The translations under genes and the position numbers were made by a program. Shown piece by piece: positions 24,339 through 48,034 of a stretch of DNA of 64,000 nucleotides. The stretch is taken from contig CAVZDU010000008.1 of assembly GCA_963774265.1 (NCBI GenBank), positions 32,001 to 96,000 of the forward strand, given 5' to 3'. Under the pieces are notes generated by a model that was given only the letters and a program-made list of their open reading frames with translations, was not told the origin of the DNA and ran no database searches. Origin of the DNA: an uncultured Chloroflexia bacterium (GTDB taxonomy: Bacteria; Chloroflexota; Anaerolineae; CG2-30-64-16). Within the stretch, counting starts at the first letter, position 1, and every line of letters starts with the position of its first letter.

Positions 24339-26424
24339 ATGCGACAGGCTATCGTCTCAGAACCCCTCATCGATGCGAGGCTCGGGCTACCGCCCGCGCG
24401 CCTCACAGACATGCTCTACAAGATGCACCTCACGCGTATTTTCGAGGAATCAGCCTTCGAGCAGTACGCGCTCGGCAAGGTGCACGGCACGATGCATCTC
24501 TGCGCCGGGCAGGAAGCCGTGGCGATCGGTGCGATTGGCGCCCTTCGCCCGGATGACCTGATCATCTCGACTCACCGCGGCCACGGCCACGCCATCGCCA
24601 AGGGGCAGGACATCAACACGATGATGGCCGAGCTGCTGGCTAAGGAGACCGGTGTCTGCCGGGGTCGCGGCGGCTCGATGCACATGGCCGATGTGACTCT
24701 GGGCAGCCTGGGCGCAAACGGCGTCGTGGCCGGCGGCCTGCCGCTGTCGGTGGGCGCCGGGTTGACCCTCAAGCTGCAGGGCGGCGACCAGGTGTGCATC
24801 TGCTTCTTCGGCGATGGCGCATCGAACGAAGGCGCCTTCCACGAGAGCATCAACATGGCCGCTGTCTGGAAGCTGCCGGTCATCTACCTCTGCGAAAACA
24901 ACCAGTACGGTATGTCCAGTCGGTCAAGCACGTCATGGCGGCTGCCGATATCGCCGACCGCGCGTTGGCCTACGGCATCCCCGGCGAGACGGTCGATGGC
25001 ATGGACCCGCTGGCCGTCTACGAGGCCGTGAAGCGGGCGACAGCGCACGCCCGCTCGGGCAATGGCCCGGTGCTCATCAACGCCGTCACCTATCGCTACT
25101 ACGGCCACTCGAAGAGCGACAAGCAGCGTCTACCGCACCAAGGAAGAGGTCGAGACGTGGCGGGCCAGGGATCCGCTCGTTACGTTCCGCGATCGTCTGA
25201 TCGCTGACGGCGTTCTGACCGGCGCCGATGCCGCTGCCTTGGTCGAACAGGCTCAGAAGACGATCGACGACGCCATCGCCTGGGGCGATGCCAGCCCGGA
25301 GCCGTCGGTGGAGCACCTGACGGACGATGTGTACGCCGATGAGCCGGACGTGCTGGCTGCGCCGGAGCACGTGCTGCCGGCATGGATCAAGCAAACCTTC
25401 GGCCCCGCCACACGCCATCAATCCTGACCCCGGCGCCCGTGAGATCAGCTACTCTGAAGCGCTGCGCGAGGCGATGCGCGCAGGCGCTGAAAGCCGATCG
25501 ATCGTGTCTACCTGATCGGCGAGGACATCGGCGTTTACGGCGGTGCATTCGGCGTGACGCAGGGGCTCGATCGAGGAGTTCGGGCAGGAGCGCGTGCGCG
25601 ACACCCCCATCTCGGAGAACGCCATCGCGGGCGCGGCGGTGGGCACCGCGGTGACCGGGATGCGCCCCATCGCCGAGATGCAGTTCATGGATTTCCTGAC
25701 CCTGGCATGGAGCAGTTGGTGCTCCAGGGCGCCAAGATCCGCTACATGTTCGGCGGCAAGGCCAGCGTGCCGATGGTGCTCCGCCTGCCGGCCGGGTCGG
25801 GCACCGGCGCGGCGGCTCAACACTCCGAGAGCCTGGAGTCGTGGCTGGTGAATGTGCCGGGTCTGAAGGTGGTGGCGCCCAGCACACCGTACGACGCCAA
25901 AGGCTTGCTGCTGGCTGCCATCGCCGACAACAACCCGGTGATGTTCGTCGAGAACAAGCTGCTCTACAAGGCCAAGGGTCCCGTGCCGGAGGAACCCTAC
26001 ATCGTCCCGCTTGGCAAAGCTGCAATTCGGCGTCAGGGAAGCCATGTCACCGTGGTGGCGACGTCGATCATGGTCGTGCGTGCGCTGGAGGCGGCGCAGA
26101 AGCTGGCCCCGGAGGGCATCGAACTGGAGGTGATCGACCTCCGCACGCTCAAACCGTACGATGGCGAGACGATCATCGCTTCGGTGAAGCACACCGGACG
26201 GCTGCTGATGGTCCACGAGGCGCCGCTGATCGGCGGTTTCGGCGGCGAGATCGTCGCCATGATCGCCCAGAGCCCGGCGTTCGCCTACCTGGAAGCGCCC
26301 AATCGTGCGCCTGGGCGGCGCCGATGTGCCCATTCCCTACAACCCAAAGCTCGAACGTGCCGCGGTGCCGCAGGTCGAGGACATCGTCGAGGCGGCGCGG
26401 CAGCTTGCCCGCACCGAGATTTAG
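24339..26424 (+). CDS. TPP-dependent acetoin/2-oxoacid dehydrogenase E1, alpha and beta apparently fused (multiple frameshifts)
   Basis: Alpha: [23 protein letters not shown]...ENNQY, YRYYGHS; beta: [35 protein letters not shown]; alpha sequence runs into beta with no stop plus RBS/ATG. Confidence 0.85.
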
Positions 26425-26437
26425 CAGGGGAATCCAT

Positions 26438-27873
26438 ATGCCGACCGCTGTGATCATGCCCAAGTTTGAGATGGCCCAGGAGACCGGCAAGGTGGCCACT
26501 GGCTGAAGGCCGAGGGTGACGTCGTCAAGAGAGGGGACGCCATCCTTGAGGTCGAGACCGACAAGGTCACCCTGGAGGTCGAGGCTTTAGCCGACGGGAT
26601 TCTGATGGGCATTACCGCCCGGACCGGTGACGTTGTGCCGATTGGCCAGACCATTGCCTATCTCGTGAAACCCGGCGAGTCGTTTTCCGGCGCAGGTCCG
26701 ACCCCTGCCAGTCGGGCGGTTGTCGATGCAGCGCAGCCGGCGCTATCGCGACCGTCCCACCCACAGGACGCCTCCGGCTCTGGGGATATTGCGCACGCTG
26801 TCTCGGCCTCGCCTCTCGCCGTTCGCCTGGCCGAAAACCTCGGTGTCGACCTGGCGCACGTGAAAGGCACGGGGCTGCGCGGACAGGTCACGCGAGAGGA
26901 TGTGGAGGCCTACGCTGCGTCGCAGCCGTCTCCATCCACGACCGACGATGGTAAAGTGCGCGCCGTGCCAGCCGCTCGACGTCTGGCGCGCGAGCTGGGG
27001 GTGGACCTGCGCAGGGTGGTTGGCACCGGGCCAGAGGGTCGCATCCAGCCGGACGACGTACGCGCGCACCTCCAAGCCACTGCCGTCGAAGGCGCGTCTA
27101 CCGCAGGGACCGCTGAGCCCGTTAGTGTTCAACTCGAGCCTCCCGTGGCATCCGCGATGCTTCCTGGCAGTCCCGCCATCCGCCGTCTGGTGCCGCTGAC
27201 CAACATCCGCCGCACCATCGCGGAACGCATGACGGCCAGCGTGCGTGAAGCGCCCCAGTTCACGGTCAGCCTGGACGCGGACATGACCCGCTCCCTGGCT
27301 ATCGTAGAGGATCTGCGCAATAGCGATGCGGGACCTGCCGGCCAGCCACGCATCACCCTGACCACACTGCTGATCAAGGCCAGCGCCTGGGCGCTGTGCC
27401 AGCACCCAGGCGTCAACGCCGCGTACCAGGATGGACAGGTCGCCGAGTGGGATGAGGTGAACATTGGCGTGGCCACTGCCATCGAGGCGGGATTGATCGT
27501 GCCGGTGATTCACCAGGCCGATCTGCTGGGGATGCGAGGAGTCGCTGCCCGGCTGGCCGATCTGACGAGTCGGGCACGCGAAAACCGGCTCAAGATCGAA
27601 GATCTGCAGGGCGGCACCTTCACCGTGTCCAATCTGGGCATGTTCGGCATCGATCGATTTACGGCCATCCTCAACCCGCCGCAGGCTGCGATTCTGGCCG
27701 TGGGGCGAGTCGCCAAGCGGGCGGTCGTGACCGCTGATGATCGCGTCGAGGTTCGGCCGGTGACCACGCTCACCCTGACCGCGGATCACCGGGTATTGGA
27801 CGGCGTCACAGCCGCGAAGTTTCTGGCGACGATCCAACGGGTGCTGGAGCATCCGGGCTTGTTGATGGAATAA
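26438..27873 (+). CDS. Dihydrolipoamide acyltransferase E2 (one lipoyl domain, two subunit-binding domains; frameshift near 26500)
   Basis: MPKFEM...EVETDKV lipoyl site; ASPLAVRLA and AVPAARRLA PSBDs; [17 protein letters not shown]. Confidence 0.9.
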
Positions 27874-27894
27874 CAAAAGGTAAGGAGCGAGTGA

Positions 27895-28980
27895 ATGTCC
27901 TCAGTACCAATGCTCCAGATTGCGATGGACTACATCACGCTACCCCCCGCGCTGGCGATGGCGATGAAGGTGGCTCCTGAGGTCGACATTATCGAGATCG
28001 GCACGCCGCTGTGTAAGGCGGTGGGCCTGGATGGCATCCGTGCCATGCGTGATCTGGTGGGTCCGGACAAGCTGATCCTGGCGGACTTCAAGAGCCCGGA
28101 TGTCGGCGGGCTGGAGGCCAAAATGGCCTTCGATGCCGGCGCCGACATGATGACTGTGATCGGCGGTGCCGCGCTGGCAACGGTGGAGTCGGCTCTCGCC
28201 GCGGCCAAGACAGCGCATAAAGAGATGCTCATGGAACTAACCGGGGTGCGCGACATTCTGGCCCGAGCCAAGGAGTGGCGGCAGATCGGCGTGGAGCGCA
28301 TGGTGTACCACCGTGGCTGGGACGAGCAGGCCAGCGACCGACAGTGGGTGGAGGAAGACCGCACGGTTATCCGCCAGCTTATCGACATGGGCTTCAAGAT
28401 CACCGTGACGGGCGGCCTCTCGAAACAATTGCTGCCTTTCTTCCAACCGCTGGCTGTGTCTGTGGTGATCTGCGGCCGCGGCATCCGCGAGACGCCTGAC
28501 CCTCGGCAGTCGGCCCATGAATTTCGGATGGAGATGCAACGGTTGTGGGGAACGGGCGGTGTTGTGCCCGCCTTTCCCGGAGGCAAGGTAGCGGCAAACA
28601 CCGCGGTGGAGAATGCGGCAAAAGCGCTCCGCTGGGGCGTAAGTGAGATGGGGCTAACCCTCACGGTCGATGGTCGCGATTGCCCAGGGTGTGACTCACC
28701 ACAACGCTTCTGCTGGGGAAGCCGCGTGGAGGTGGCCGCGCCGGCTGGCGTGAACGCTGGCGATATTGTGGCAAGGATCGCTCAGAATTTCGGACACACG
28801 CCCGCCGTGGCGCGCGGTGGTGACGGGAGTTTCATCCTTGATCCTGCGCAGCTGCCGAATACCACGCCGAACGAGGTGCTCGATTTGCTCCGGGCGGCAG
28901 GCAACGCGTTGCGTGCGCTCGGATGCGCGGTGGACGTGGCTGCCGGTGTTTCGGTAGCGGAAAACATCCTGCGCAATTAG
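27895..28980 (+). CDS. 3-keto-L-gulonate-6-P decarboxylase / hexulose-6-P synthase (OMPDC superfamily) with about 140-aa C-terminal extension
   Basis: LQIAMD, IEIGTP, ADFK..D, ELTG, YHRGWD, MGFKITVTGG, GR.IR, ..LWG follow UlaD/SgbH; extra domain after residue ~220. Confidence 0.82.
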   Translation: MSSVPMLQIAMDYITLPPALAMAMKVAPEVDIIEIGTPLCKAVGLDGIRAMRDLVGPDKLILADFKSPDVGGLEAKMAFDAGADMMTVIGGAALATVESALAAAKTAHKEMLMELTGVRDILARAKEWRQIGVERMVYHRGWDEQASDRQWVEEDRTVIRQLIDMGFKITVTGGLSKQLLPFFQPLAVSVVICGRGIRETPDPRQSAHEFRMEMQRLWGTGGVVPAFPGGKVAANTAVENAAKALRWGVSEMGLTLTVDGRDCPGCDSPQRFCWGSRVEVAAPAGVNAGDIVARIAQNFGHTPAVARGGDGSFILDPAQLPNTTPNEVLDLLRAAGNALRALGCAVDVAAGVSVAENILRN

Positions 28981-29012
28981 CCGCAGACGGAAGGCGCAAA
29001 CACTAAGGAGGA

Positions 29013-29336
29013 ATGATGGCACAAACCCACGTGCAGATGACCGCCCTCGGCATGGTCGAGACGCGGGGACTGGTGGCCTCGGTCGAGGCTGCGGATGCGA
29101 TGAGCAAGGTGGCATACGTCCGGCTGGTGGCGCAGGAGGAGATCGGCGGTGGATACGTCACGATCATGGTCCGAGGTGAGGTCGGCGCGGTGCAGGCGGC
29201 AGTGGATGCCGGCGTGGCGGCGGCAAAGCGGGCCGGCGAACTGGTGACCGCGCATGTGATCGCCCGGCCGCACGCCCTGGTGGAGAAACTGCTGCCCGGT
29301 GGCCCGACCCGCGTCGTGCGGGCGCTGGCCGATTGA
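29013..29336 (+). CDS. BMC shell hexamer protein (BMC-H)
   Basis: [22 protein letters not shown]...[17 protein letters not shown]...HVIARPH. Confidence 0.95.
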
Positions 29337-29347
29337 GAGGCTGACAC

Positions 29348-29977
29348 ATGGACCTCAGGACCTATGTTCTCATCGACTCCATGCAGCCCCAGTATGCGGC
29401 GCTGACAGGCATCCTGCTGCAGGGTGATACGCCCGTCGAGGGCATGGCGGAAATCTTCATGGAGCTGGCCCCGGCGAGCGACGTATACGAAGTGCTCGAC
29501 GCCGCGCTGAAGACAACCGAAGTCCGGCCAGGCCTGCTGCGGGTCGAGCGTGAGTACGGCACACTGGAGATCCACGGGTTCTTCCAGGAGAACGTAAAGA
29601 CCGCCGGCAGGGAAGCGCTTGTGAAGTTCGGTCTCACCGAGGCCGACCGCTGGAAGCCGGAGGTTGTCTCAGTCAAGACCGTGACCAACGTCGATCCCTA
29701 CGAGGCGCAGCTCGTCAACCAGACCAGCCGGGGCGGTCTTCTGCTCAAGGGTCAGACCTTGTGCGTGATCGAGGTGGTGCCGGCGGCCTACGTGATGCTC
29801 GCCGCCAACGAGGCGGAAAAGGCGGCCAACATCACTCTGGTGCACTACCAGCCCTCGGGCAGATTCGGCCGCCTGTACATCTCAGGCACCGAATCGGAAG
29901 TGCGCGTCGCTCGCGACGCAGCGGTCACTGCGGTCAACAGCCTGCCCGGTGCCACCCGCGGCAGAGGGGGCGCATAA
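29348..29977 (+). CDS. BMC tandem-domain shell protein, permuted double-stacking type (BMC-T, CsoS1D/CcmP-like)
   Basis: LRTYVLIDSMQPQ, EREYGTLEIH, AANEAEKAANI, GRFGRLYISG resemble permuted BMC-T proteins. Confidence 0.88.
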   Translation: MDLRTYVLIDSMQPQYAALTGILLQGDTPVEGMAEIFMELAPASDVYEVLDAALKTTEVRPGLLRVEREYGTLEIHGFFQENVKTAGREALVKFGLTEADRWKPEVVSVKTVTNVDPYEAQLVNQTSRGGLLLKGQTLCVIEVVPAAYVMLAANEAEKAANITLVHYQPSGRFGRLYISGTESEVRVARDAAVTAVNSLPGATRGRGGA

Positions 29978-29978
29978 C

Positions 29979-30302
29979 GTGAAGACCTTCATTTCCGCCA
30001 CGGACATCGAGGCGCTGGCCGCACAGGGTGTGCGCGAGCTGATGGTCGACGAGGATACGGTGCTGACGGCTGTCGCCCGGGAGGCAGCCGCGCAACTCGG
30101 GGTAAAGTTGGTAGCGCCTGGAGCGACAAGCTCTGCCCGACCGCCCGCGCAACCGGCGGCCGTCTTCGGGAAACCGAAGGGGTGCCAGCACGGGCCCCTG
30201 GGTGGGGAACGCAATTCAGCACCCACCCCGAGCGCGAAGGCTGCCAACCCGGTCGTCGACCAACTGATCGGTGCTGTAAAACAGCTCTATGGGCGGAATT
30301 GA
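29979..30302 (+). CDS. Small BMC-associated protein: EutQ-N-like domain, low-complexity linker, C-terminal amphipathic helix
   Basis: KTFISATDIE...TVLTAVAREAA; Pro/Ala linker; NPVVDQLIGAVKQLY; GTG start 2 nt after BMC-T stop. Confidence 0.65.
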   Translation: MKTFISATDIEALAAQGVRELMVDEDTVLTAVAREAAAQLGVKLVAPGATSSARPPAQPAAVFGKPKGCQHGPLGGERNSAPTPSAKAANPVVDQLIGAVKQLYGRN

Positions 30303-30321
30303 GGCTGAGGAGACGCACAAC

Positions 30322-30613
30322 ATGATTATCGCCAAAGTGATGGGCGCGGCCGTCGCCTCAGTCAAGATGGACGCGCTCCAGGCGACCAAATTGCTGGTCG
30401 TAAGCCCGACAGATGCGCAGGGCAACCCAAACGGCGCCCCATTTCTGGCAGTCGACTTGGTCGGCGCGGGCGAGGGTGAACTGGTGATGGTCAGCCAGGG
30501 CATCCTCCGCACGAATGGCAGTGGCCAACGACCGTTCGCCGGTTGATGCCGCGATCATCGGTATCCTGGACTCCCTGCGCTACAACGGGGAACTGGCCTT
30601 CAGGAAGGAGTAG
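30322..30613 (+). CDS. BMC vertex pentamer (BMC-P, EutN/CcmL family; frameshifted near 30500-30535)
   Basis: MIIAKVMG...KLLVV...[18 protein letters not shown]; C-terminal [12 protein letters not shown] in a shifted frame. Confidence 0.9.
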
Positions 30614-30617
30614 AACT

Positions 30618-30944
30618 ATGACGCAGCCAAACGATCTCCAGACAACGAACGACGACATGGACCCGGGGATGCGAGCCCTCGGAATGATCGAAACGAAGGG
30701 GCTGGTGGCCTGCATCGAGGCGGCCGATGCGATGGTGAAGGCCGCCAACGTGAAACTGTTGGACCGCCGGGCCATCGGCGGCGGTTACATGACGGTGATG
30801 GTGCGCGGCGATGTGGGCGCAGTGCGGACCGCGTTGGAGGCGGGCAGCCAGGCCGCGCGGCGGCTCGGCCAGGTCGTCTCGGTACGCATCCTGCCCAGCC
30901 CGCACCTGGATCTGGAACATATCCTCCCTGAGATTGTGGAGTAG
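30618..30944 (+). CDS. BMC shell hexamer protein (BMC-H) with short N-terminal extension
   Basis: [26 protein letters not shown]...[17 protein letters not shown]...LPSPH. Confidence 0.95.
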
Positions 30945-30947
30945 CGA

Positions 30948-31800
30948 GTGAGCGCGCCACGTATAACGCCAGCCAGGTTGCGGACCAAAAAGAGCCGCGG
31001 ACAGAAGATCACGATGCTGACGGCCTACGACTGCCCCATGGCCTCGTTTATCGACCAGGCCGGGGTGGACATCGTGCTGGTCAGCGATGCGGTGGGCACG
31101 GTGGGCAACGGCCGGCCCGAGGCGGTCTCGGTGACGGTGGACGAGATGATCTACCACACTCGCGCGGTGCGCAACGGCGCCAAGCGCTGCATGGTCGTCA
31201 CGACCCTGCCGTTTGGCTTCCTACAACACCACCGAAGATGCCCTGCGGACGGCGACCCGGCTGATGAAGGAGGGCGGCGCGGACGGCGTGCATCTGGAAG
31301 GCACCCGCCGCGAAGGCGCACCTGGTCGGCGAAATCACGGCTGCGGGCATCCCGGTGATGGGGCACGTCGGCGTGACCAAGCAGAAGATCGTCGGCACCG
31401 GCCGGATCAAGCTGCCCGGGCAGGACGCTGCGTCGGCGCGAAGAGATCATCGGCGACGCGTTGGAGATGGCCCGGCAGGGCGCGTTCTGCGTTGGTGCTG
31501 GAGTGTCTGCCGACTGCGCTGGGACGGATCATCACCAGAGCCTGGACATCCCGACGATCGGCATCGGTTCGGGCGCGGACTGCGACGGCCAGGCGTTGGT
31601 GACGCAGGACATGCTGGGGCTGTACAAGGAAATGTCGCCGCGCTTCCTGAAGGTGTATGCCGATCTGGCGACCACGATGGTGGACGCGCTCGGGCAGTTC
31701 CGCCAGGAAGTCGAAGGGCGGCGTCTTCCCGGCGCCCGAGCACACGTACCCGATCGACGACGGTGAGCTGCGGAAGCTACTGGCGCAGTTGCGGTCCTGA
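30948..31800 (+). CDS. PanB-like (ketopantoate hydroxymethyltransferase family) paralog, several frameshifts
   Basis: KITMLTAYD, VTVDEMIYHTRAV, PVMGHVG, LVLEC, IPTIGIGSGADCDGQALV, PRFLKVY. Confidence 0.85.
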
Positions 31801-31905: not shown

Positions 31906-32655
31906 ATGGCTGAGTCTCTGAAGGGAAAGGTGGCGGTCATCACGGGCGTCGGCTCCGGGTTCGCGAAGGCCACGGCGGAGCTGTTCGCCACGGCTGACCA
32001 GGTGGGCCTCGTCCTGATCGACCTCAACGAGAAGGCCCTCAAGGCCACCGCCGACGCCTGCGAGGCGGCCGGCTCGAAGGTCGTTGCCTTTGCGGGCGAC
32101 GTGACCAAGCCGGAGACCTTCGAGCGCGCGCTCAAGGAGACGCTCGACACCTTCGGCAAGGTCGATTTCCTCATCAATTACGCGGGCGGCGCGCTCAAGG
32201 TGGCGCCCATCGAGGAGATGGACGATGCCATCAACCGCCGCATCATCGACCTGAACCTCACCAGCACGATCATGAGCTGCCGGACCTTCACGCCGCAGTT
32301 CAAGAAGCAGGGCTACGGCAAGATCATCAACGTGTCCAGCGCGTGCGACCGCCGCTCGTGGCCGGGGTGGTCGGTCTACTCCGCCGCCAAGGCCGGCGTC
32401 AACGCCTTCACGAAGTGCCTCTACACCGAGCTGCGGCCCCACGGCATCGCCGTCACGCTCCTCGTGCCGGGCGGATCCAACACCGGCTTCCAGGCGGCGG
32501 CAGCAGGCGTCAACAAGTTCGAGTGGGACGAGTATCTGGCCGTGCGCCCCGAGCACTTCGCCGACATGGTGTACCAGACCTGCGCGCTCTCGAAGGGCGG
32601 ATGCGTCTCCGAGATGCTGGTTTACGGGCTGGCGCAGGACGTCAGCGGTTTCTGA
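31906..32655 (+). CDS. Short-chain dehydrogenase/reductase
   Basis: VAVITGVGSGFA, IINVSS, YSAAKAG. Confidence 0.93.
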   Translation: MAESLKGKVAVITGVGSGFAKATAELFATADQVGLVLIDLNEKALKATADACEAAGSKVVAFAGDVTKPETFERALKETLDTFGKVDFLINYAGGALKVAPIEEMDDAINRRIIDLNLTSTIMSCRTFTPQFKKQGYGKIINVSSACDRRSWPGWSVYSAAKAGVNAFTKCLYTELRPHGIAVTLLVPGGSNTGFQAAAAGVNKFEWDEYLAVRPEHFADMVYQTCALSKGGCVSEMLVYGLAQDVSGF

Positions 32656-32802: not shown

Positions 32803-34949
32803 ATGAAGAAGCTGTTCGCTCTAGTGGCTCTGCTGGTGCTCGCCAGCCTGGTCCTGTCCGCCTGCCGCGACCCCCGCGCCCGCTCCGGCGGCTGCGCCCA
32901 CCCAGGTGCCCGCAGCTGCACCGACCGTGGCGCCGGCGGAACCCACCAAGGCCCGCCGAGCCCGCTGCACCGGCGGCGACCGAGTACAAGCCGGCGACCT
33001 ACTACGCCGAAGAAGATTGCGTTCTTCGTATCGGACCTGATCGAACGTGTTCCACCAGGGGCAGGCGACCGAGGCGAAGAAGTACGCCAAGGATAAGTAC
33101 GGCGCCGAGGTGTTCATCTTCGACGGCAAGTCGGACTCGGCGACGATGACGGCGAACGTGGACCAGATCATGGCCCAGGGCATGGACGCCGCGACCCTGC
33201 ACGTCTGGGACGATCCGGCGGCACTGCCGGCGGTGAAGGAAATGCTCGCCAAGGGCATCATCCTGACGTCGTTCTTCAGCCCGATGGGCGATACGGGCAT
33301 TCCGGTCGCGCGCAGCGACGAGAAGGGTGTCTCGTTCGCGATGGGCGCCGAGATGGCGAAGCAGTGGAAGGCAGCGCACCCGGACAAGCCGATCGTGATG
33401 GTGGAGTTGGGCTGGCCGAACCACACCGAGGTGAAGTCGGGCCGGACGGATCCGTTCGTGGCAGGGTGTGCTGTCGGTGGACCCGACGGCGACGGACCTG
33501 GGCTGCCTGGATGCGAGCAAGGGCGCCGATGCGGCGAAGCAGATCATCACGGACCTGGTGACGCAGCATCCGGAAGTGAACCTGATCTACTCGGAAGCGT
33601 CGAACCTGACGGTCGGGACGATGGCCGGCCTGACGCAGGCGGGCCGCGGCAAGATGGACGATGGCAAGCCGCTGACGGAGATCGTGGCCAGCGTCGACTT
33701 CGACCCGGTCGAGTACGAGCAGGTGTACGACCCGAACAGCTCGCTGAAGTTCTCCATGGGTCTGCCGCCGATCGAGACCGGCCACGGCCGCATCGACCTG
33801 ATCATGGACGTGGCGCAGGGCAAGATCCCGATGACCTCGAACCCGGCCAAGGAGCAGTTCTACAAGGCTTACGACGTCAACTTCTACACGATGCCGCAGG
33901 CCGATGCTGCGACCTGGCTGAACACCCAGTTCGGCACCAACATCACTCCGCCCGTAGCTGCGGCTGCGCCCGCGGCGAGCGAGTACAAGCCGGCGACCGA
34001 CACGCCGAAGAAGATTGCGTTCTTCGTATCGGACCTGATCGAACGTGTTCCACCAGGGGCAGGCGACCGAGGCGAAGAAGTACGCCAAGGAGAAGTACGG
34101 CGCCGAGGTGTTCATCTTCGACGGCAAGTCGGACTCGGCGACGATGACGGCGAACGTGGACCAGATCATGGCCCAGGGCATGGACGCCGCGACCCTGCAC
34201 GTCTGGGACGATCCGGCGGCACTGCCGGCGGTGAAGGAAATGCTCGCCAAGGGCATCATCCTGACGTCGTTCTTCAGCCCGATGGGCGATACGGGCATTC
34301 CGGTCGCGCGCAGCGACGAGAAGGGTGTCTCGTTTGCGATGGGCGCCGAGATGGCGAAGAAGTGGAAGGCAGCGCACCCGGACAAGCCGATCGTGATGGT
34401 GGAGCTGGGCTGGCCGAACCACACCGAGGTGAAGTCGGGCCGCACGGATCCGTTCGTGGCAGGGTGTGCTGTCGGTGGACCCGACGGCGACGGACCTGGG
34501 CTGCCTGGATGGGAGCAAGGGCGCAGATGCGGCGAAGCAGATCATCACGGACCTGGTGACGCAGCATCCGGAAGTGAACCTGATCTACTCGGAAGCGTCG
34601 AACCTGACGGTCGGGACGATGGCCGGGTTGACGCAAGCGGGCCGCGGCAAGTATGGACGATGGCAAGCCGCTGACGGAGATCGTGGCCAGCGTCGACTTC
34701 GACCCGGTCGAGTACGAGCAGGTGTACGACCCGAACAGCTCGCTGAAGTTCTCCATGGGTCTGCCGCCGATCGAGACCGGCCACGGCCGCATCGACCTGA
34801 TCATGGACGTCGCGCAGGGCAAGATCCCGATGACCTCGAACCCGGCCAAGGAGCAGTTCTACAAGGCTTACAACGTCAACTTCTATACGATGCCGCAAGC
34901 CGACGCTGCGACCTGGCTCAACACCCAGTTCGGCACCAATATCAAATAG
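32803..34949 (+). CDS. Sugar ABC (CUT2, RbsB-like) binding lipoprotein with two tandem binding domains, frameshifted
   Basis: Lipobox LVLSAC; KKIAFFVSD...FDGKSD.. periplasmic-binding-protein type I fold present twice. Confidence 0.85.
32982..34943 (+). repeat. Tandem direct repeat, about 963-bp units (32982-33944 and 33981-34943), period 999 bp
   Basis: Near-identical sequence with scattered, mostly third-position differences. Confidence 0.95.
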
Positions 34950-34962
34950 CTCACTTTGGACA

Positions 34963-35074: not shown

Positions 35075-36625
35075 ATGGAACTGACAGAAAACGTTCTCGA
35101 AATCAGGGATCTGGTTAAAGAGTTCCCGAGCGTGCGGGCAGTCAACAACGTCAGTTTCGACATCAAGCGCAACACCGTCCACTGCCTCGTCGGCGAGAAC
35201 GGCGCCGGGAAGAGCACGCTGATCAAGATCCTCACCGGCGCATACCAACGCACCAGCGGCAAAATCCTGCTGAACGGCCAGGAGTATGCGGCGGCGAGCA
35301 CGAAAGAAGCCAAGGAAAAGGGCATCAGCACGCTTTTCCAGGAGCTGAACGTGGTCGATCAGCTCACGATTGAAGAAAACCTTACGTTGGGCATGGAGGA
35401 TACGCGGTTCGGTTTCCTCCGCAAGACGGACAAGATCAACAAGATCGTGAGCGTGATGAACAGCCTGGAGCCGTCTATCGACCCCAAGCAAATGGTCTCC
35501 GACCTGAGCGTGGCCAGGAAGCAAATCGTGGAGATCGCGAAGGCAGTTGCGACCGAGTCGGACATCATCATCATGGACGAGCCGACTGCGGCCCTGTCCG
35601 AAGCTGAAATCGCCAGGCTTTTCAAGATCATTCGGGGCTTGCGCGAGCGTAACGTCACCGTCATCTACATCTCCCACCGGCTCGACGAAATCTTCGAGCT
35701 TGGCGACTACGTCACCGTGATGCGCGACGGCCGCCACATCGACACCAAGCCCATTTCGCAAGTGAAAGACCGGTCGGAACTAATCAAGATGATGATCGGC
35801 CACACGGTCTTCGAGCAGTACACGCCCCGAGACCGTGACTGCGATGATATCATCCTCGAAGTGCGCAACCTATCCAACCACAAGCTCCAGGACATCTCCT
35901 TCTCCGTCCCCAGGGGCGAAATCGCGGGGTTCTACGGTCTGGTCGGTGCGGGCAAAACAGAGCTGGCGCGGGCCATCTACGGCGCGGACCCGTATACAGG
36001 CGACATCATCTTCAAAGGCAAGAAACTGCGCGGCTCGACCGATCGGGTCATTGAGGCAGGCATCGCGCTGGTCCCCGAAGAACGGCGCTCGCAGGGCCTG
36101 TTCACGTTGCTCACAATCAGGGGCAACGTGCCGGTTATGAATATGAAGAAGGTCTCCCGCGGTGGCTTCGTCAACGGAGCCCAGGAGCGGGCGGTCACGC
36201 TCGAATATATCGACAAGCTACGGATCGCAACCAGCAGCACCGAGAAGGAGGCCGCGCAGCTATCGGGCGGCAACCAACAGAAGGTCGTGCTCTCGAAGTG
36301 CCTGTTTGCCGACGCGGATCTCCTGATGCTTGACGAGCCCACACGCGGCATCGACGTTGGCGCGAAGAGCGAGATCTATACCCTCATCCGCCAGCTTGCC
36401 GCCGAGGGCAAGTCAATCCTGATCTTTTCTTCCGAGCTCCCCGAGGTGATGAACATCTGCGACACGATCTACCTCCTCTACGACGGGAGTGTGAAGGAGA
36501 CGGTTCGCAACGGCTGTGACGTCGATAGCGAACTGATCATGCACGCCGTGAGCGGAGTCGCCTCCGGCGGCGGGATCGACGGCAACGGCACCCAGGGCGC
36601 CAGCAAGGCGACGGAGGCAGAATGA
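35075..36625 (+). CDS. Sugar ABC ATP-binding protein (RbsA-like, two NBDs)
   Basis: GENGAGKST, IIMDEPT, ISHRL, LSGGNQQK, LDEPTRGIDVGAK. Confidence 0.95.
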   Translation: MELTENVLEIRDLVKEFPSVRAVNNVSFDIKRNTVHCLVGENGAGKSTLIKILTGAYQRTSGKILLNGQEYAAASTKEAKEKGISTLFQELNVVDQLTIEENLTLGMEDTRFGFLRKTDKINKIVSVMNSLEPSIDPKQMVSDLSVARKQIVEIAKAVATESDIIIMDEPTAALSEAEIARLFKIIRGLRERNVTVIYISHRLDEIFELGDYVTVMRDGRHIDTKPISQVKDRSELIKMMIGHTVFEQYTPRDRDCDDIILEVRNLSNHKLQDISFSVPRGEIAGFYGLVGAGKTELARAIYGADPYTGDIIFKGKKLRGSTDRVIEAGIALVPEERRSQGLFTLLTIRGNVPVMNMKKVSRGGFVNGAQERAVTLEYIDKLRIATSSTEKEAAQLSGGNQQKVVLSKCLFADADLLMLDEPTRGIDVGAKSEIYTLIRQLAAEGKSILIFSSELPEVMNICDTIYLLYDGSVKETVRNGCDVDSELIMHAVSGVASGGGIDGNGTQGASKATEAE

Positions 36626-37659
36626 GCGTCCAGACAACCGCGCCGGCACAGAAGAAGCGCGCGACAAGCCGCATGAGCAACGAGACGTATATCACCCTGT
36701 TCATGGTCGGCGTTCTCCTCGTCGTCTTCCTTGTCGCCTGCATCTTCGTGCCGAACTTCTATAAGCCTCAGAATATTATCAATATTCTGACCAACAGCTG
36801 GTACATCGTGATCCTCGGCATCGGCGTGAGCTTCCTGTTGATCACGGGGAACTTCGACATGTCGGTTGGAGGGGTGATTGCGCTCACAGGCGTCCTCTCC
36901 GTGTATTTCTGTCAGGGAGTGAACGTCTCGCGAAATGAGCTGGCCAACGGCCTTGGCTTCCCATACCCCGTCGCAATTGGAGCCGCACTTCTCTGCGCCA
37001 TGGCCGTCGGCGGGGTGAACGCGTTCTTTGTTGCGAAGCTTAAAGTGCCGTCGATCATCGTCACACTGGGGACTATGATGCTGGCGCGCGGCGTTGCCCA
37101 GGTCATCACCCAGGGCGCGCAGCGCAACACCAGCCTGCCGAAGGTCTTCGGTGTCATCGGCAACGCGGCAATCCCCGGCACCTCTCTCAAGGTTTCGGTA
37201 GTGATCATGGTCGTGCTCCTGATCGTTGCCTTTCTCTTTGAGCGCAGGACCGTATTTGGGCGGCGAACATACCAGATTGGCGCCAACCAGGAGGCGGCCC
37301 GACTGTCAGGGATCAAGGTCTCCCGCCACCTCACGATGCTCTTCATTCTCAGCGCACTGCTGGCCGGCATCACCGGGATCCTCCTTGCTTCGGAGTACAA
37401 GGCCGGCCTCTCGAACCGCGCCATGGGATACGAATTCGACGCGTTGGTGGTTGCGCTGCTGGGCGGCGTGAGCATCGCGGGCGGCTTCGGGTCAGTGCTG
37501 GGCATGTTCGTGGGTGCGATCCTTCTCTCCGTGATGACCTCGGCGGCGACTGGCCTGCTGCTCTCACCCGACTTACAGTATACGCTCAAGGCCGTGGTGA
37601 CCTTCATCGCGATTCTTGCGCAACGCTGGGCCGTTGACCGGCGCAGCCGCCAGGGCTAA
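36622..37659 (+). CDS. Sugar ABC permease (RbsC-like)
   Basis: FDMSVG, VPSIIVTLG, IGANQEAARLSGI, LLGGVS..GG.G. Confidence 0.93.
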   Translation: MSVQTTAPAQKKRATSRMSNETYITLFMVGVLLVVFLVACIFVPNFYKPQNIINILTNSWYIVILGIGVSFLLITGNFDMSVGGVIALTGVLSVYFCQGVNVSRNELANGLGFPYPVAIGAALLCAMAVGGVNAFFVAKLKVPSIIVTLGTMMLARGVAQVITQGAQRNTSLPKVFGVIGNAAIPGTSLKVSVVIMVVLLIVAFLFERRTVFGRRTYQIGANQEAARLSGIKVSRHLTMLFILSALLAGITGILLASEYKAGLSNRAMGYEFDALVVALLGGVSIAGGFGSVLGMFVGAILLSVMTSAATGLLLSPDLQYTLKAVVTFIAILAQRWAVDRRSRQG

Positions 37660-37670
37660 AGGAGACGATC

Positions 37671-38714
37671 GTGACAACCACTCAAGCATCCATGCGGAAG
37701 ACCACCAGTCAGAGTGACCGCTCTGATGCCTTGCGGGCGGCCGTCAAGAAGTACTACATCTACGTGGTCTTGCTGGTGATCGTGATCGCCTTCAGCCTCG
37801 CCAAGGTTAACGAGGTCGGATTGTTCGGGAGGGGGGCCTTCCTCAGCCCGGACAGTGTGATTAACATGTTTCGCATCTCGGCGCCGATCCTGACGCTGAG
37901 CGGTGCGTTCACGCTGCTGATGATCTCAGGGTACATCGACCTGTCGGTGGGCAGCGCGATGAGTCTCGCCGCGGTTGTGTTCAGCTTTATGATCTTGAAT
38001 GGGTTCGCCTTCCTCCCGGCGTTCCTGATCACGCTGGTCGTGGGGATAGGGATGGGCCTGCTCAACGGCTTTAACGTCATGAAGCTCCGCATCACGCCCG
38101 TGATCGCCACCCTGGTCACACTGAACCTATTCAAGGGTATCGCCCTGCTCATCGTGCCCGACGGCACATCCGCGATCAAGAGCACAGCCACACAGAAAAT
38201 GCCCGCGATGATCAACTACTACGCCCGGCAACCTGTGATTCTCGGCTTGCCTCTGGCCTTCTTCGTTGCGGTCGCTGTCATCATCGGTTTGGTGATCGTG
38301 CAGCGGAAGACGATCCTGGGCAAGTACGCCGCGGCGATCGGTGGCAACCGGATTGCGGCCGAGTTGTCCGGCATCAACCCGGTTAAGTATGTTTGGCTGC
38401 TGTACGTGATCGTCGGGTTCTTCGCAGCCGCGGCCGGAGTCGCGCGGGCGAGCTACATGTCGCTGGGAGATCCACTATCCGGCGATGGCATGGAACTCGA
38501 CTGCATCATCGCCGTACTGCTTGGCGGGACCGCGTTTTCGGGTGGCGAGGGATCGGTTGCCAAGACCATGATCGCGGCCCTGATTCTCATGTGCGTGACA
38601 ACCGGCCTGATGACTGTTATACCAGCCTATTGGCAAGTCTTGGCGAAAGGCAGCGTGCTGCTGTTCGCCGTTGTGTTGAATCACGTGCTAGTGCGGCGTC
38701 GCGCGCTCGCGTAG
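37671..38714 (+). CDS. Sugar ABC permease (RbsC-like)
   Basis: IDLSVG, IATL, IGGNRIAAELSGI, VLLGGT..SGG.G. Confidence 0.93.
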   Translation: MTTTQASMRKTTSQSDRSDALRAAVKKYYIYVVLLVIVIAFSLAKVNEVGLFGRGAFLSPDSVINMFRISAPILTLSGAFTLLMISGYIDLSVGSAMSLAAVVFSFMILNGFAFLPAFLITLVVGIGMGLLNGFNVMKLRITPVIATLVTLNLFKGIALLIVPDGTSAIKSTATQKMPAMINYYARQPVILGLPLAFFVAVAVIIGLVIVQRKTILGKYAAAIGGNRIAAELSGINPVKYVWLLYVIVGFFAAAAGVARASYMSLGDPLSGDGMELDCIIAVLLGGTAFSGGEGSVAKTMIAALILMCVTTGLMTVIPAYWQVLAKGSVLLFAVVLNHVLVRRRALA

Positions 38715-38733
38715 CAGTCGAGGGAGGTGGGCC

Positions 38734-40010: not shown

Positions 40011-40145
40011 GGAAATTCTGATTCAGCCGAGGATCTCGCGAAAGTCAATAGCGTGCTGGCAGCTCGCGCCGAGGCGCTTGCCAGAGACTGGTCGTGGGAC
40101 CCGTGACCGGAGGATGCTGGTGCAGACCCAAACCCCGGAGATGCA

Positions 40146-41033
40146 ATGATACCTGTTGGCCTCTACGAGAAGGCGCTTCCGGCCGAGTGGTCCTGGGAAA
40201 GACGCCTGGCGGCCACGGCCGAAGCCGGCTACGATTTCGCCGAAATTTCGATCGACGAGACCGAAGAACGGCTAACCCGTCTGGATTGGGCGGGTGGCCG
40301 AGCGCGCCGCGCTGCGCTGCGCCATTGCTACTTCCGGCGTGCGCATCCTGACGATGTGCCTCAGCGGGCACTCGCAAGTATCCACTGGGCAGCCACGCGC
40401 CGGAAATACGCCGTCGCGGGCTGGAGATCTTCCGCAAGGCGATTGACTTCGCCGTGGATATCGGGCTGGGGATCGTGCAGGTGCCGGGGTACGATGTCTT
40501 CGACGAGCCGACTGACGCGGATACCGCGGCCTACCTACCTGGATGGGCTGCACCAGGGAACCGAATGGGCCAGCCAGGCCTGCCTGATGCTGGGCCTGGA
40601 GAACGTTGACGTCTCCATTAGCGAGTCCATCACCGCCACGATGCGTTTGGTCACCGCGATCAACTCGCCCTGGTTCCAGTTGTACCCGGACATGGCCAAC
40701 GTGGCCGCCGCCGGCTTCTATCCGCCGGACGAGCTCAGGCTGGCCAAAGATCACATCGTGGCCGTGCACGTCAAAGACGGCGTTCTGAAAACGATTCGCG
40801 GCGTGCCGTTGGCGCGGGCATCGTGCCCTTCGCCGAAACATTCGAGGCGCTCCGGGAGTGCAGGTTTCGCGGCCCGCTGGTGGTGGAAATGTGGAGCCAC
40901 ATGGATCGCACCGGCGACCCGTTCGGCTCAGTCCGCGCCTGCGCGCGAGTTTGTCAGGCCCTATCAAGAGGTGTTGGATGCTTCTCGAAGAACTGCGAGA
41001 GATCGTCTGGAAATGCAACCTGGAGCTGCCTAA
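40146..41033 (+). CDS. L-ribulose-5-phosphate 3-epimerase (UlaE/SgbU-like), frameshifted
   Basis: VGLYEKALP..SW..R, FAEISIDET..RL.RLDW, MCLSGH, GYDV, LYPD, VHVKD, VVEMW. Confidence 0.88.
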   Translation: MIPVGLYEKALPAEWSWERRLAATAEAGYDFAEISIDETEERLTRLDWAGGRARRAALRHCYFRRAHPDDVPQRALASIHWAATRRKYAVAGWRSSARRLTSPWISGWGSCRCRGTMSSTSRLTRIPRPTYLDGLHQGTEWASQACLMLGLENVDVSISESITATMRLVTAINSPWFQLYPDMANVAAAGFYPPDELRLAKDHIVAVHVKDGVLKTIRGVPLARASCPSPKHSRRSGSAGFAARWWWKCGATWIAPATRSAQSAPAREFVRPYQEVLDASRRTARDRLEMQPGAA

Positions 41034-41623
41034 GAACGACCTCGTCAAGATGACGAGCGGCAACATCAGCGGCCGCGATCCGGAGACCGGCCTGGTCGTC
41101 ATCAAGCCGAGCGGCTACAGCTACGAAGAGATGACAGCCCGGCGACATGGTCATCGTCGACATGGACGGCAAGGTCGTCGACGGCCACCTGACGCCCTCG
41201 GTGGACACCGAGACGCATCTTTACGTTTATGCCCACCGGCCAGACGTCTTGGGCATCGGCCACACGCATTCGCCCTACGCGAGCAGCTTCGCAGCGTTGG
41301 GCAGAGCCAATCCCGCCCTGCCTGACGGCTTCGGCGATGTTGGGCGGCGAGATTCCGCTGGGCAAATACGTGCCCATCGGCGGCGCGGCCATCGGCGCGG
41401 AGATCGTCGCCAAGATCGGCAACGCACGGGCGATCATCATGCAGAACCACGGGGTTTTCACCATCGGCAACTCGCCCAAGCAGGCCACCAAGATGGCCGT
41501 CGAGGTCGAGGAGATCGCCAAGATCACCCACCTGGCGCTGCTGATGGGCCAGCCGTCGTCCTGACGCCGGAGCAATTGGGCCAGATGGACGATCTGTACA
41601 CGAATCTCTACGGGCAAAAGTAA
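40978..41623 (+). CDS. Class II aldolase-fold L-ribulose-5-phosphate 4-epimerase (AraD/UlaF-like), frameshifted
   Basis: LREIVWKCNLEL, SGNISGRD, VIKPSG, PSVDTETH, GHTHS, NHGVF, YGQK. Confidence 0.88.
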
Positions 41624-41639
41624 GGGGAGGGCTGATTCT

Positions 41640-42683
41640 TTGGCCGAGCTGACTTCCAAGGAACGCGTTATTTGCGCATTGCGACGGCAGGAACCGGACC
41701 GGGTGCCGCACTTCGAGTGGCTCGTGGACCGGAAAGTGCGGGACGCTTTCCTGCCTGGCTGCCAGGATCACAACGAGTTTGCGGTTCGCATGGGGCATGA
41801 TGCCGTCCTGGTGGACCCCAATTTCGCCAAGGAGCCGCTGAGCGACGGCCGGTATCGCAGCGAGTGGGGCTACATCGGGCAGAAGACCCAGGAGGAGCAC
41901 GGCATCGAGGTCGAGTCGCCCATCGCGAGCCTGGCCGACTTCGAGCGCTATACCCCGCCCGACCCCCTGGCGCCGGGCAGATACGCATCCATCGAAAAAA
42001 CGTTGGCGCAATACGGCGATCGATACGCAGTCATCGTCCACCTCAACGACGTGTTTTCGCTCCCGCGTTACCTCATGGGCATGGAGAACCTGCTCATGGC
42101 CATCGCAGCCGAGCCTGAGCTCGTGCAGGCGCTGGTGGACATGTCGGTCGATATCAACCTGGTGATGGCGAAGGAGCTCGTCGCACGGGGCGTGAAGATC
42201 GTCTACACGGGCGATGATTATGCATCCAGCAAAGGCCCGCTCATGTCGCCGCGGCACTTCCGCAAGCTCTTTTATCCCGGCCTGTGCCGGGTGATCGGCG
42301 GATTCAAGGAGCTGGGCCTGCTGGTCATCAAGCACACCGACGGCAACCTGTGGCCGATCCTGGACATGATTGTGGATTCTGGCATCGACTGCCTCGACCC
42401 CATCGACCCAAAGGGCGGCATGAGCCTCGCCGAGGTCAAAGCGAAGTACGGCCACCGGATCGCGATCAAGGGCAACGTGGATTGCGCGGACCTGCTGACC
42501 TTCGGCTCCGTTGAGGAGACAGTCGCAGCAACCAAACAGGCGCTGCGTGAAGGGATGCCGGGCGGCGGCTTCATCCTGTCGTCCAGCAACAGCATCCATT
42601 CAGGTGTCAAGCCGGAGAATTATGCGGCCATGATGCGAACAGTGCGCGAGTTTGGGAGCTACCCGCCGCTCGGAGATTTGTAG
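41640..42683 (+). CDS. Uroporphyrinogen decarboxylase/MtaA-CmuA family protein
   Basis: MTSKERV-like start, EPDRVP, LMGMENLL, GDDYA...LMSP, KHTDGN, IKGNVD, GGGFILSSSNSI. Confidence 0.85.
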   Translation: MAELTSKERVICALRRQEPDRVPHFEWLVDRKVRDAFLPGCQDHNEFAVRMGHDAVLVDPNFAKEPLSDGRYRSEWGYIGQKTQEEHGIEVESPIASLADFERYTPPDPLAPGRYASIEKTLAQYGDRYAVIVHLNDVFSLPRYLMGMENLLMAIAAEPELVQALVDMSVDINLVMAKELVARGVKIVYTGDDYASSKGPLMSPRHFRKLFYPGLCRVIGGFKELGLLVIKHTDGNLWPILDMIVDSGIDCLDPIDPKGGMSLAEVKAKYGHRIAIKGNVDCADLLTFGSVEETVAATKQALREGMPGGGFILSSSNSIHSGVKPENYAAMMRTVREFGSYPPLGDL

Positions 42684-42815
42684 ATATGTTGCCCGGCACG
42701 AGCATCCTGAGTGGCGTGGCAGAGGCGTTCCCGCTTGTGAGGTCGAAGGAGGCTCGGCTCTGGCCAAATTGTTGCTCCGCAATCGGCCATTAACCATCCA
42801 TGGTAAGGTGCGACG

Positions 42816-44370: not shown

Positions 44371-44387
44371 GCACCGGAGGTGTCGCT

Positions 44388-47051: not shown

Positions 47052-47155
47052 TCGCTGCCGGTTCCAACGATTGAATACATGAGGAATCGGCAGCACGTCT
47101 GGGCAACCGGATTGAAACGGTCGAAGCCCTGCAACCCGAAGAAAGGTGGCCACCC

Positions 47156-48034
47156 ATGTTCGAGGTCGAACACGTCTTGAGTGTGCAAAACGAGATTGGC
47201 GAGAGCCCACGCTGGGATGCCGACGAACAGGCGTTATACTGGCTGGACATCTGGGACAGCCCAGCCGTCTTCCGCCACAATCCGGCGACGAAGGAATTTA
47301 CCCGTTGGACACCGGGATTGCCTGTGACGGGCCAGGCGAGGCGATCACGCGGCGGCTTCGTGTTCGCCACGCGCAAGGGACTGTACTTCTGGGACGAGCG
47401 CACGGGGCAGAGTCAATTCATCCATGACCCGGAAGCGGACAACGGGCCCGTCCGCTTCAACGACGGTTCGGCCGACCGGATGGGCAGGTTTTGGGCGGGC
47501 TCCACCTATGCCGACGACCAATTCCGACCGGAAGGTTCGCTCTATCGCATGGACATCGATAGTGCCGTAAACAAGATGGCAGGGGGACTGGCCTGCTCGA
47601 ACGGATTGGGCTGGAGTCCGGACAACAGGACGATGTATGTCACCGCGCAGTTCGCATATGAGCTGCTGGCATTTGACTTCGACCCGAAGACAGGCGCGAT
47701 CACAAACAGACGATCCTTCGCCAAGGTGCCGGAGACAGATGGCCTACCGGACGGGCTGACTGTCGACGCTGAAGGGTGCGTGTGGAGCGCACAGTGGGGT
47801 GGCTGGCGTATCACCCGGTACGATCCGGACGGCAAGATCGAGCGAGTGGTCAAGCTGCCCGTACCGAACCCCACGAGCTGCGTGTTCGGCGGGCCCAATT
47901 TGCGGGACCTGTACGTGACCACGGCGTGGCTGCTGCTCAGCGACGCTGAGCGCCAAGCGGCGCCGGGGTCGGGCGACTTATTCGTAGTTCACACGGATAT
48001 CCAGGGGCTGACGGAGCCCAAATTCGCGGGTTGA
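47156..48034 (+). CDS. SMP-30/gluconolactonase family lactonase
   Basis: GESPRWD, RFNDG, SNGLGWSPD, PDGLTVDAEG, TSCVFGG. Confidence 0.93.
   Translation: MFEVEHVLSVQNEIGESPRWDADEQALYWLDIWDSPAVFRHNPATKEFTRWTPGLPVTGQARRSRGGFVFATRKGLYFWDERTGQSQFIHDPEADNGPVRFNDGSADRMGRFWAGSTYADDQFRPEGSLYRMDIDSAVNKMAGGLACSNGLGWSPDNRTMYVTAQFAYELLAFDFDPKTGAITNRRSFAKVPETDGLPDGLTVDAEGCVWSAQWGGWRITRYDPDGKIERVVKLPVPNPTSCVFGGPNLRDLYVTTAWLLLSDAERQAAPGSGDLFVVHTDIQGLTEPKFAG

Follow-up and report, generated by a model that had tools for sequence, protein, structure and literature searches.

What does a bacterial microcompartment (BMC) enclose when no aldehyde dehydrogenase is encoded with its shell? To our knowledge, all well-studied catabolic microcompartments are built around such an enzyme. 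The question is raised by a shell locus in the metagenome-assembled genome (MAG) GCA_963774265.1 of an uncultured Chloroflexota bacterium (Anaerolineae). The window analyzed here is a stretch of 64,000 nt of its contig CAVZDU010000008.1 (contig C8 of genome G000). For assignment of gene families, we scanned the open reading frames (ORFs) of the window with Pfam and NCBIfam models. On the plus strand, the genes of an E1 and an E2 protein are followed by an OMPdecase-family gene, five shell and scaffold genes and a PanB-family gene. A preliminary description of this DNA had named three of these enzyme families (E1, OMPdecase and PanB) and the shell genes at these positions, and they were confirmed by Pfam. 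The shell gene set is complete, as BMC-H (PF00936), a tandem BMC-T protein and BMC-P (PF03319) are encoded together. The described lack of an aldehyde dehydrogenase also held: at E ≤ 1e-10, PF00171 had no match on this contig or on the locus-bearing contig of a second genome (G012, contig C3). A phosphotransacylase of the PduL or Pta type did not turn up in the general Pfam scans of the ORFs, which included no search aimed at it.

Our proposal, to which we give a probability of roughly 0.55, is a BMC of no assigned function that lacks an aldehyde dehydrogenase and was inserted into an operon similar to the ula and yiaK-S (sgb) operons of Escherichia coli; so far it is found in Anaerolineae. 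The inserted module would have seven parts, namely two BMC-H proteins, a CcmP-like BMC-T protein, a BMC-P protein, a scaffold-like protein of 107 amino acids (aa), an enzyme derived from PanB and an adaptor domain on the OMPdecase-family enzyme, which is referred to below as the decarboxylase. It sits between the genes of the decarboxylase and a short-chain dehydrogenase (SDR). In the operon, a sugar would be taken up by an ABC transporter, oxidized by the SDR or an alcohol dehydrogenase (ADH), phosphorylated by FGGY kinases and, as a compound of the 3-keto-aldonate-6-phosphate type, decarboxylated; 3- and 4-epimerization would then lead to D-xylulose-5-phosphate. The encapsulated cargo would be the decarboxylase, held via its adaptor domain, and the PanB-like enzyme. 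The shell may confine the Mg-enediolate decarboxylation together with a metal-dependent carbon-carbon bond reaction of the PanB-like enzyme on a small reactive carbonyl. E1 and E2 would act in the cytosol, outside the shell core, as a pyruvate-dehydrogenase-like accessory of the sugar pathway.

A shell module within a sugar operon

With the decarboxylase as query, 59 loci were found, one of which is a distant match from a Coriobacteriaceae. The reference proteins were mapped onto 58 related Chloroflexota loci; L090 was excluded. The MAGs of the relatives are labelled Anaerolineae, Anaerolineales, Caldilineaceae, Promineifilaceae, Thermoflexales or Chloroflexota, and two others Bacteroidota and Thermoleophilia. 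The decarboxylase occurs in a long form in 47 loci and in a short form, which ends directly after the barrel, in 11 loci. BMC-H and BMC-T genes accompany the long form wherever at least 1.5 kb of downstream sequence is available (44/44 loci). With at least 3.3 kb downstream, a PanB-like gene is present in 40 of 41 loci, and the sole exception (L087) is a fragmented locus. The short form is accompanied neither by shell genes (0/9) nor by PanB (0/9). It is directly followed by the SDR gene and the same transporter, and the encoded SDR and binding protein are 73-84% and 80-88% identical, respectively, to those of the shell-bearing genome G014. Both forms of the decarboxylase carry the same catalytic motifs. 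A PanB of the shell type was found in none of five shell-less genomes, the completeness of which was not established; the best matches were 44-46% identical in three of them, and two had none at 1e-20.

The arrangement is far beyond chance among the related Chloroflexota loci. Shell genes, 107-aa protein, PanB-like gene and decarboxylase C-terminal domain strictly co-occur, and orthologous operons run without them; they therefore constitute a single module that entered an already existing operon. As the same operon exists with and without the module, the contribution of the shell is directly testable.

E1 and E2 behave differently. The preliminary description had counted E1, together with the decarboxylase and PanB families, as an immediate neighbour of the shell. 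This is correct in the window and does not hold for E1 and E2 across the loci. Only 14 of the 34 shell loci for which 4 kb or more of upstream sequence is available contain them (11 on the same strand, 3 divergent); 5 of 9 shell-less loci have them too. Their orthologues from both kinds of loci align end to end, without added termini. Of five shell-bearing genomes searched because their locus is without E1/E2, one encodes a fused orthologue elsewhere (71% identity) and another a fused form with 52% identity; in the remaining three, alpha and beta are encoded by split genes only. E1 and E2 are therefore no conserved neighbour of the shell and are peripheral to the module, given their occurrence in shell-less loci and the lack of a shell-specific extension. 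E1, of the AcoAB type in the preliminary description, is a single gene with fused alpha and beta parts, the open frame of which is intact in G014 (715 aa) and G012 (736 aa). It scores best against pyruvate dehydrogenase (PDH) models. The alpha part reached 374 bits with TIGR03182 (PDH; cut-off 393.85) and the beta part passed PRK09212 (371 bits, cut-off 321). An acetoin-type E1 model was not among the NCBIfam matches of E1, and its best PDB relatives are E1 structures of PDH and of branched-chain 2-oxoacid dehydrogenase (BCKDH). The E2 protein is likewise nearest to a PDH model in NCBIfam, at 348 bits (cut-off 445).

The operon around the module encodes the partners of a pathway via 3-keto-L-gulonate-6-phosphate decarboxylase (KGPDC), namely a UlaE-like 3-epimerase, a UlaF/AraD-like 4-epimerase and FGGY kinases. 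For the class II aldolase-family gene, the orthologue in G014 passes the L-ribulose-5-phosphate 4-epimerase subfamily model NF005123 (253.3 bits, cut-off 251). The AP_endonuc_2 barrel is nearest to the UlaE/SgbU L-ribulose-5-phosphate 3-epimerase models, below their cut-offs, and the kinases stay below cut-off as well. For comparison we used the E. coli set of UlaD/SgbH (KGPDC), UlaE/SgbU (3-epimerase), UlaF/SgbE (4-epimerase) and the kinase LyxK. The likeness to ula and sgb lies in the KGPDC-like barrel, the AP_endonuc_2 protein, the 4-epimerase-like class II aldolase-family protein and the FGGY kinases. In contrast to E. coli, an ABC transporter with a tandem binding protein serves uptake here, and shell genes and the gene of a PanB-like enzyme lie within the operon. 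The binding protein is a tandem duplication in the window and at L012:12899-15052; in five relatives, its two repeats are encoded in one continuous frame of 718-772 aa. Transporters of this class do not usually have a double binding protein fused in this way. Its PDB relatives are weak (ribose-binding proteins at 1e-8). A Zn-dependent ADH gene adjoins the decarboxylase gene in 14 loci.

Upstream of the decarboxylase gene in L046-L049, L063, L065, L068, L071, L072 and L075, a regulator of the SorC/DeoR type is encoded divergently; it has a Sugar-bind domain and is DeoR-like with 231 bits. The regulator cluster is present in 16 loci. A DeoC/LacD-family aldolase cluster occurs in five loci and lies next to the regulator in three of them (L046-L048). 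A relation to the Lsr system of autoinducer-2 (AI-2), as might be read from SorC/DeoR regulator, FGGY kinases and DeoC-family protein in the five loci, found no agreement in the LsrR and AI-2 kinase models, which scored far below their cut-offs.

Candidate cargo and the scaffold-like protein

The closest solved relative of the decarboxylase is E. coli KGPDC (phmmer, 2e-49). The AlphaFold model of the protein has a mean pLDDT of 85, and its barrel superposes on E. coli KGPDC in Foldseek with a TM-score of 0.97 on the target, a root mean square deviation of 1.2 Å and 42% identity. Seven of the eight KGPDC catalytic residues (E33, D62, K64, D67, E112, H136 and T169) have invariant equivalents in 44 orthologues, and all 44 carry Trp in place of Arg139. 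The UlaD-type models were missed (NF009831, 198 bits, cut-off 294; NF009832, 201 bits, cut-off 250). Together with the Trp for Arg139, this means that the substrate may differ from 3-keto-L-gulonate-6-phosphate. Compared with the E. coli enzyme, there is also an extra domain of 140 aa.

The preliminary description had assigned to this enzyme a fixation of formaldehyde like that of 3-hexulose-6-phosphate synthase (HPS). With HPS (HxlA) and 6-phospho-3-hexuloisomerase (PHI, HxlB) of the ribulose monophosphate (RuMP) pathway, it shares the OMPdecase suprafamily and Mg-enediolate chemistry. It differs from the RuMP case in three respects. The HxlA/HPS model TIGR03128 was missed (167.5 bits, cut-off 200), a PHI passed the cut-off of TIGR03127 in none of four genomes (best 58.8 bits, cut-off 160), and two residues, E112 and T169, are those of KGPDC. 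The third position, Trp, matches neither the KGPDC nor the HPS type. According to the PDB titles, E112D/R139V/T169A variants of KGPDC were solved with bound D-ribulose-5-phosphate; we take these changes to mimic HPS. As judged from residues and modelled fold, the enzyme appears KGPDC-like and not HPS-like, and the evidence favours decarboxylase over HPS chemistry; the UlaE/UlaF-like epimerases encoded downstream fit a decarboxylase product. The assignment to HPS was thus not upheld.

In two loci of the Promineifilaceae type, a second, short decarboxylase paralogue with Ala where KGPDC has T169 was observed beside a divergent E1 alpha-beta/E2 pair (L068:7137-7910 and L071:5542-6231, minus strand).

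The C-terminal domain of the long decarboxylase is predicted to be folded (pTM 0.80). It resembles the small domain of class V aminotransferases (query-normalized TM-score 0.64-0.69, E ~1e-4), the pyridoxal phosphate (PLP)-binding domain of which is missing here. A loop of low confidence holds the invariant motif C-P-G-C...C with three invariant Cys. From the model, the domain reads as an adaptor and not as a catalytic domain. A look-up in the ESM Atlas gave no usable match for it. The prediction of a complex of this domain with the 107-aa protein and Zn had a score of 0.02, which counts neither way.

Of the solved PanB structures compared (1oy0 and 1m3u), the PanB-like enzyme has full-length homology to 1oy0 from Mycobacterium tuberculosis (3.3e-62). 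Its G014 orthologue passes the panB equivalog TIGR00222 with 276 bits (cut-off 207.55). It differs from PanB in the replacement of three canonical active-site residues, and each genome has it as the third paralogue. All 16 copies from shell loci show LVSDA for LVGDS, VVTT(M/L)P for IGDMP and VH(L/M/V/F)E for (V/I)KLEGG. Thereby the Asp of IGDMP (Asp84) is replaced by Thr, the Lys of VKLEGG (Lys112) by His and the Ser of GDS by Ala. Further changes are TPQS to (T/I)KQK and HD to QD. The canonical residues are kept in all six other paralogues of G004, G012 and G014 and in 1oy0 and 3ez4. Each of these three genomes has three panB-family genes, among which the shell-locus copy scores lowest. The lost Asp is presumably a Mg ligand, and the lost Lys and Ser presumably bind the substrate carboxylate. 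With these residues replaced, the hydroxymethyl transfer assigned to this gene in the preliminary description cannot be assumed. In metagenomes, the PanB-like protein has at least 120 clusters with an identity above 71%; a source name is available for 65 of these, and every one is given as ordinary PanB. This label is probably a systematic misannotation, because the active site is altered.

The 107-aa protein is conserved in the alignment of 37 loci and has no Pfam match. Its N-terminal ~45 aa form a conserved domain, and its C-terminus is an amphipathic helix which resembles an encapsulation peptide. Between the two, an invariant G-C-Q-H motif is preceded by a Pro/Ala-rich linker and followed by a second linker. 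A profile search at E ≤ 0.001 revealed a family of 610 clusters. One metagenomic member (P0184, 333 aa) carries a transaldolase/fructose-6-phosphate aldolase (FSA) domain flanked by the scaffold N-domain and the terminal helix, and other members repeat the N-domain. Since family members fuse these domains to transaldolase/FSA or repeat the N-domain, the sequences point to a modular connector between cargo and shell. P0184 may point to a related BMC variant whose cargo is an aldolase. The adaptor domain and the scaffold family may be reusable targeting parts.

Several observations weigh against the proposed microcompartment. The related loci are kin, so that the counts of co-occurrence overstate their independence. 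In the lineage of the window, E1 and E2 adjoin the shell genes, and they may have a role inside the shell. The decarboxylase stays under every NCBIfam cut-off, and the Trp at the Arg139 position may mean that its true substrate is not 3-keto-L-gulonate-6-phosphate. The PanB-like protein, in turn, lies over the panB equivalog cut-off, and its C-terminal tail is also found on the paralogues and is not unique to the shell copies. In addition, we infer the cargo status of both enzymes from their co-occurrence with the shell and from sequence extensions.

Other explanations and comparison with known systems

If the PanB-like enzyme were a 2-oxoacid aldolase of the class II type, it could be the signature enzyme of the compartment. 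It would then split a 4-hydroxy-2-oxoacid into pyruvate and an aldehyde in the shell; E1 alpha-beta and E2 would convert the pyruvate to acetyl-CoA, and the aldehyde would be reduced by the SDR or Zn-ADH or trapped by the enediolate of the decarboxylase. PanB belongs to the fold superfamily of the metal-dependent pyruvate aldolases, and the remodelled site of the PanB-like enzyme argues for a new substrate. The PDH-like character of E1 and E2, the Zn-ADH genes and the fusion of a related scaffold to a transaldolase/FSA aldolase also agree with this scheme. However, most shell loci are without E1/E2, shell-less operons retain E1/E2 and are yet without PanB, no dehydratase for a 2-keto-3-deoxy acid was identified, and the mechanism follows superfamily analogy only. 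We therefore regard an aldolase as unlikely, though as one of the two best of the alternatives.

An equally low probability is given to the second one, in which the shell confines a small reactive carbonyl, with formaldehyde as the prime candidate, that is passed directly between a PanB-derived lyase or transferase and the enediolate enzyme of the KGPDC/HPS family. No ligand other than formaldehyde is known to be shared by the two families: PanB accepts it, and KGPDC has promiscuous HPS activity. If this were true, the microcompartment would detoxify an aldehyde by carbon-carbon bond formation instead of an aldehyde dehydrogenase, and the shell-less sister operons would be a natural control.

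A little less probable still is the more specific scheme of the preliminary description, a C1-confining core in which a branched or keto sugar is cleaved in the shell and the C1 or C2 aldehyde released by E1 and/or PanB is recaptured by an aldol reaction of the HPS type, so that an aldehyde dehydrogenase would not be needed. What remains of this core is the PanB-derived and the KGPDC/HPS-family enzyme as a conserved candidate cargo pair; E1 and E2 do not belong to it. Both cargo candidates come from the only two families here for which a formaldehyde reaction is known. The KGPDC variants with bound D-ribulose-5-phosphate, the hydrophobic residue (Trp) at the Arg139 position in all 44 sequences and the lack of an aldehyde dehydrogenase also speak for it, and the strict linkage of PanB to the shell points to PanB chemistry as the purpose of the shell. 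However, E112 and T169 are kept, the HxlA score is below its cut-off and also below the UlaD-type scores, and no hexuloisomerase passes its cut-off in the four genomes. The epimerases suit a decarboxylase product, and the same catalytic domain is found in 9 loci without shell or PanB. Furthermore, the PanB-like enzyme is without the canonical Asp and Lys, and E1/E2 are not conserved with the shell. No finding here shows a handling of formaldehyde by the shell, which we consider improbable.

A carboxysome-like logic, in which the shell retains the CO2 of the decarboxylase for carboxylation by the PanB-like enzyme, is very improbable. It could draw on the decarboxylase among the conserved cargo candidates and on the best NCBIfam matches of the shell proteins, which are CcmP-like for BMC-T and CsoS1-like for BMC-H, both below cut-off. 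However, no carbonic anhydrase or known carboxylase was found among the locus genes scanned, and we know of no carboxylase in the PanB family. According to the catalog text of PMC8217296, CcmP-like proteins occur in many catabolic BMC types.

Besides the studied locus, a second BMC locus was found in G000, G004 and G014. The second locus of G014 (L098) encodes a DeoC-family aldolase, BMC-H, BMC-P and an aldehyde dehydrogenase and is thus SPU-like. It was considered whether the studied locus is a satellite of such an SPU-like locus. This was rejected because G012, which is 97% complete, carries only the studied BMC locus. The second BMC locus of G000 is located outside the window, on contig C6 at ~73000-87300.

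The locus resembles the BUF class in the catalog of Sutter et al. (2021; PMC8217296). In the text of this catalog, the types BUF2 and BUF3 have no aldehyde dehydrogenase and a double-stacking BMC-T, and BUF2 is confined to one phylum. The likeness consists of the missing aldehyde dehydrogenase and of the BMC-T, which here is of the double-stacking kind. E1/E2, OMPdecase and PanB are not named for any BMC type in the catalog text or preprint, and the descriptions of the single types are contained in Supplementary Data 2 (PMC8217296). The locus type may already be listed there, for example as BUF2. A second likeness exists to the SPU microcompartments (SPU6 of Anaerolineae) in host class, sugar-phosphate substrates and BMC-T. 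In contrast to SPU, the studied locus is without aldehyde dehydrogenase, neither DeoC/DERA nor RpiB was found among the window genes scanned, and its candidate cargo consists of the decarboxylase and the PanB-like enzyme. Passages of the 2024 SPU paper make no mention of such enzymes. Literature on microcompartments with ketopantoate or gulonate gave unrelated papers only, as judged from the listings. The module pairs two enzyme families which, by this literature search, are not reported alongside shells.

Gene content and sequence quality of the locus

The features of the locus are compiled below. Upstream of it, an amidase and a peptidase are encoded, which are unrelated genes.

Features of the BMC locus and the adjoining operon in the 64,000-nt window
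Feature	Position	Strand	Basis and remarks
Fused E1 alpha-beta, thiamine pyrophosphate-dependent, pyruvate dehydrogenase type	24339..26424	+	Pfam E1_dh, Transket_pyr, Transketolase_C; 7 frameshifts
E2 acyltransferase	26435..27873 (start approximate)	+	Pfam 2-oxoacid_dh; lipoyl, two E3-binding and catalytic domains; frameshift near 26498
KGPDC-like OMPdecase-family enzyme	27895..28980	+	barrel residues 1-219; 140-aa C-terminal domain
BMC-H shell hexamer protein	29013..29336	+	PF00936 at 90 bits; NCBIfam
BMC-T tandem-domain shell protein, CcmP-like	29348..29977	+	PF00936; NF053796
107-aa scaffold-like protein	29979..30302	+	GTG start; GAGGGGG ribosome-binding site
BMC-P (EutN/BMC-P) shell pentamer protein	30289..30610	+	PF03319; frameshift near 30499
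Second BMC-H shell protein	30618..30944	+	PF00936 at 97.5 bits
PanB-derived enzyme, remodelled active site	30948..31800 (end ~31800)	+	PF02548 (Pantoate_transf); 6 frameshifts
Short-chain dehydrogenase (SDR)	31906..32655	+	also in shell-less operons
Tandem (fused) periplasmic sugar-binding protein	33041..34957	+	frameshifted in the window
Ribose-type ABC transporter, ATPase and two permeases	35075..38714	+	Pfam scan
426-aa protein directly 3' of the permeases	38716-40007		no Pfam or NCBIfam match
AP_endonuc_2 TIM-barrel protein	40107..40950 (end approximate)	+	best matches UlaE/SgbU models, below cut-off
Class II aldolase-family gene	40981..41555	+	2 frameshifts
URO-D / MtaA-CmuA-like protein	41565..42683	+	100.7 bits, under its cut-off
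Two FGGY-family sugar kinases	42807..45900 (end approximate)	+	frameshifted
SMP-30/gluconolactonase-family lactonase	47075..48034	+	family scan

The BMC-T protein matched NF053796 with 213 bits over positions 3-205 of 213, which does not reach the cut-off of 340. The frame of BMC-P is broken in the window and intact in G014. In E2, the frame change separates the lipoyl domain from the rest of the protein. Apart from these single frame changes in E2 and BMC-P, E1 alpha-beta and PanB are broken repeatedly in the window; the genes of decarboxylase, SDR, ATPase and permeases show zero frame changes.

Frame changes are found throughout the genome of the window, which consists of 10 contigs and is 84% complete. 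Its rpoB gene is also split between frames, every panB copy is fragmented, and 21 orthologue-checked genes on other contigs (~25 kb) contain 26 frame switches. The pattern is patchy, with 3-5 switches in some genes and none in others. In addition, seven of the eight frameshift positions inferred for E1/E2 coincide with single-base indels in short-read contigs from two public soil runs (24916, 25129, 25413, 25499, 25570, 25704 and 26498/26499). Most of the matching contigs are 90-95% alike to the window and therefore come from close relatives; one of the two runs may be the source sample. The PanB region had a depth near 1 in both runs and no indel rows, and its frameshifts were judged from the genome-wide evidence. 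Between the frameshifts, the amino-acid identity holds at 64-88%. The frameshifts of the window are assembly errors and not local decay, because rpoB, the panB copies and genes on other contigs are broken too and the short-read contigs have indels at all but one of the E1/E2 sites. A decaying locus with E1 and PanB as pseudogenes, as might be suspected from 13 of the 15 frameshifts over nine mapped genes in these two genes, is hardly tenable against up to 5 frameshifts per kb genome-wide, the indels in the short-read contigs and the amino-acid identity kept between the shifts, and was rejected.

Some minor observations concern the genes further downstream. The 426-aa protein (L091:393-1670) is present in G014 and G001 and was not seen at the locus of G012. 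The URO-D/MtaA-CmuA-like gene also occurs in two shell-less loci (L077 and L088). At 49918-51882, the window encodes the large subunit of a biosynthetic acetolactate synthase, which passes TIGR00118 and is unrelated to the locus. Its stop-to-stop frame has an N-terminal extension of ~85 aa.

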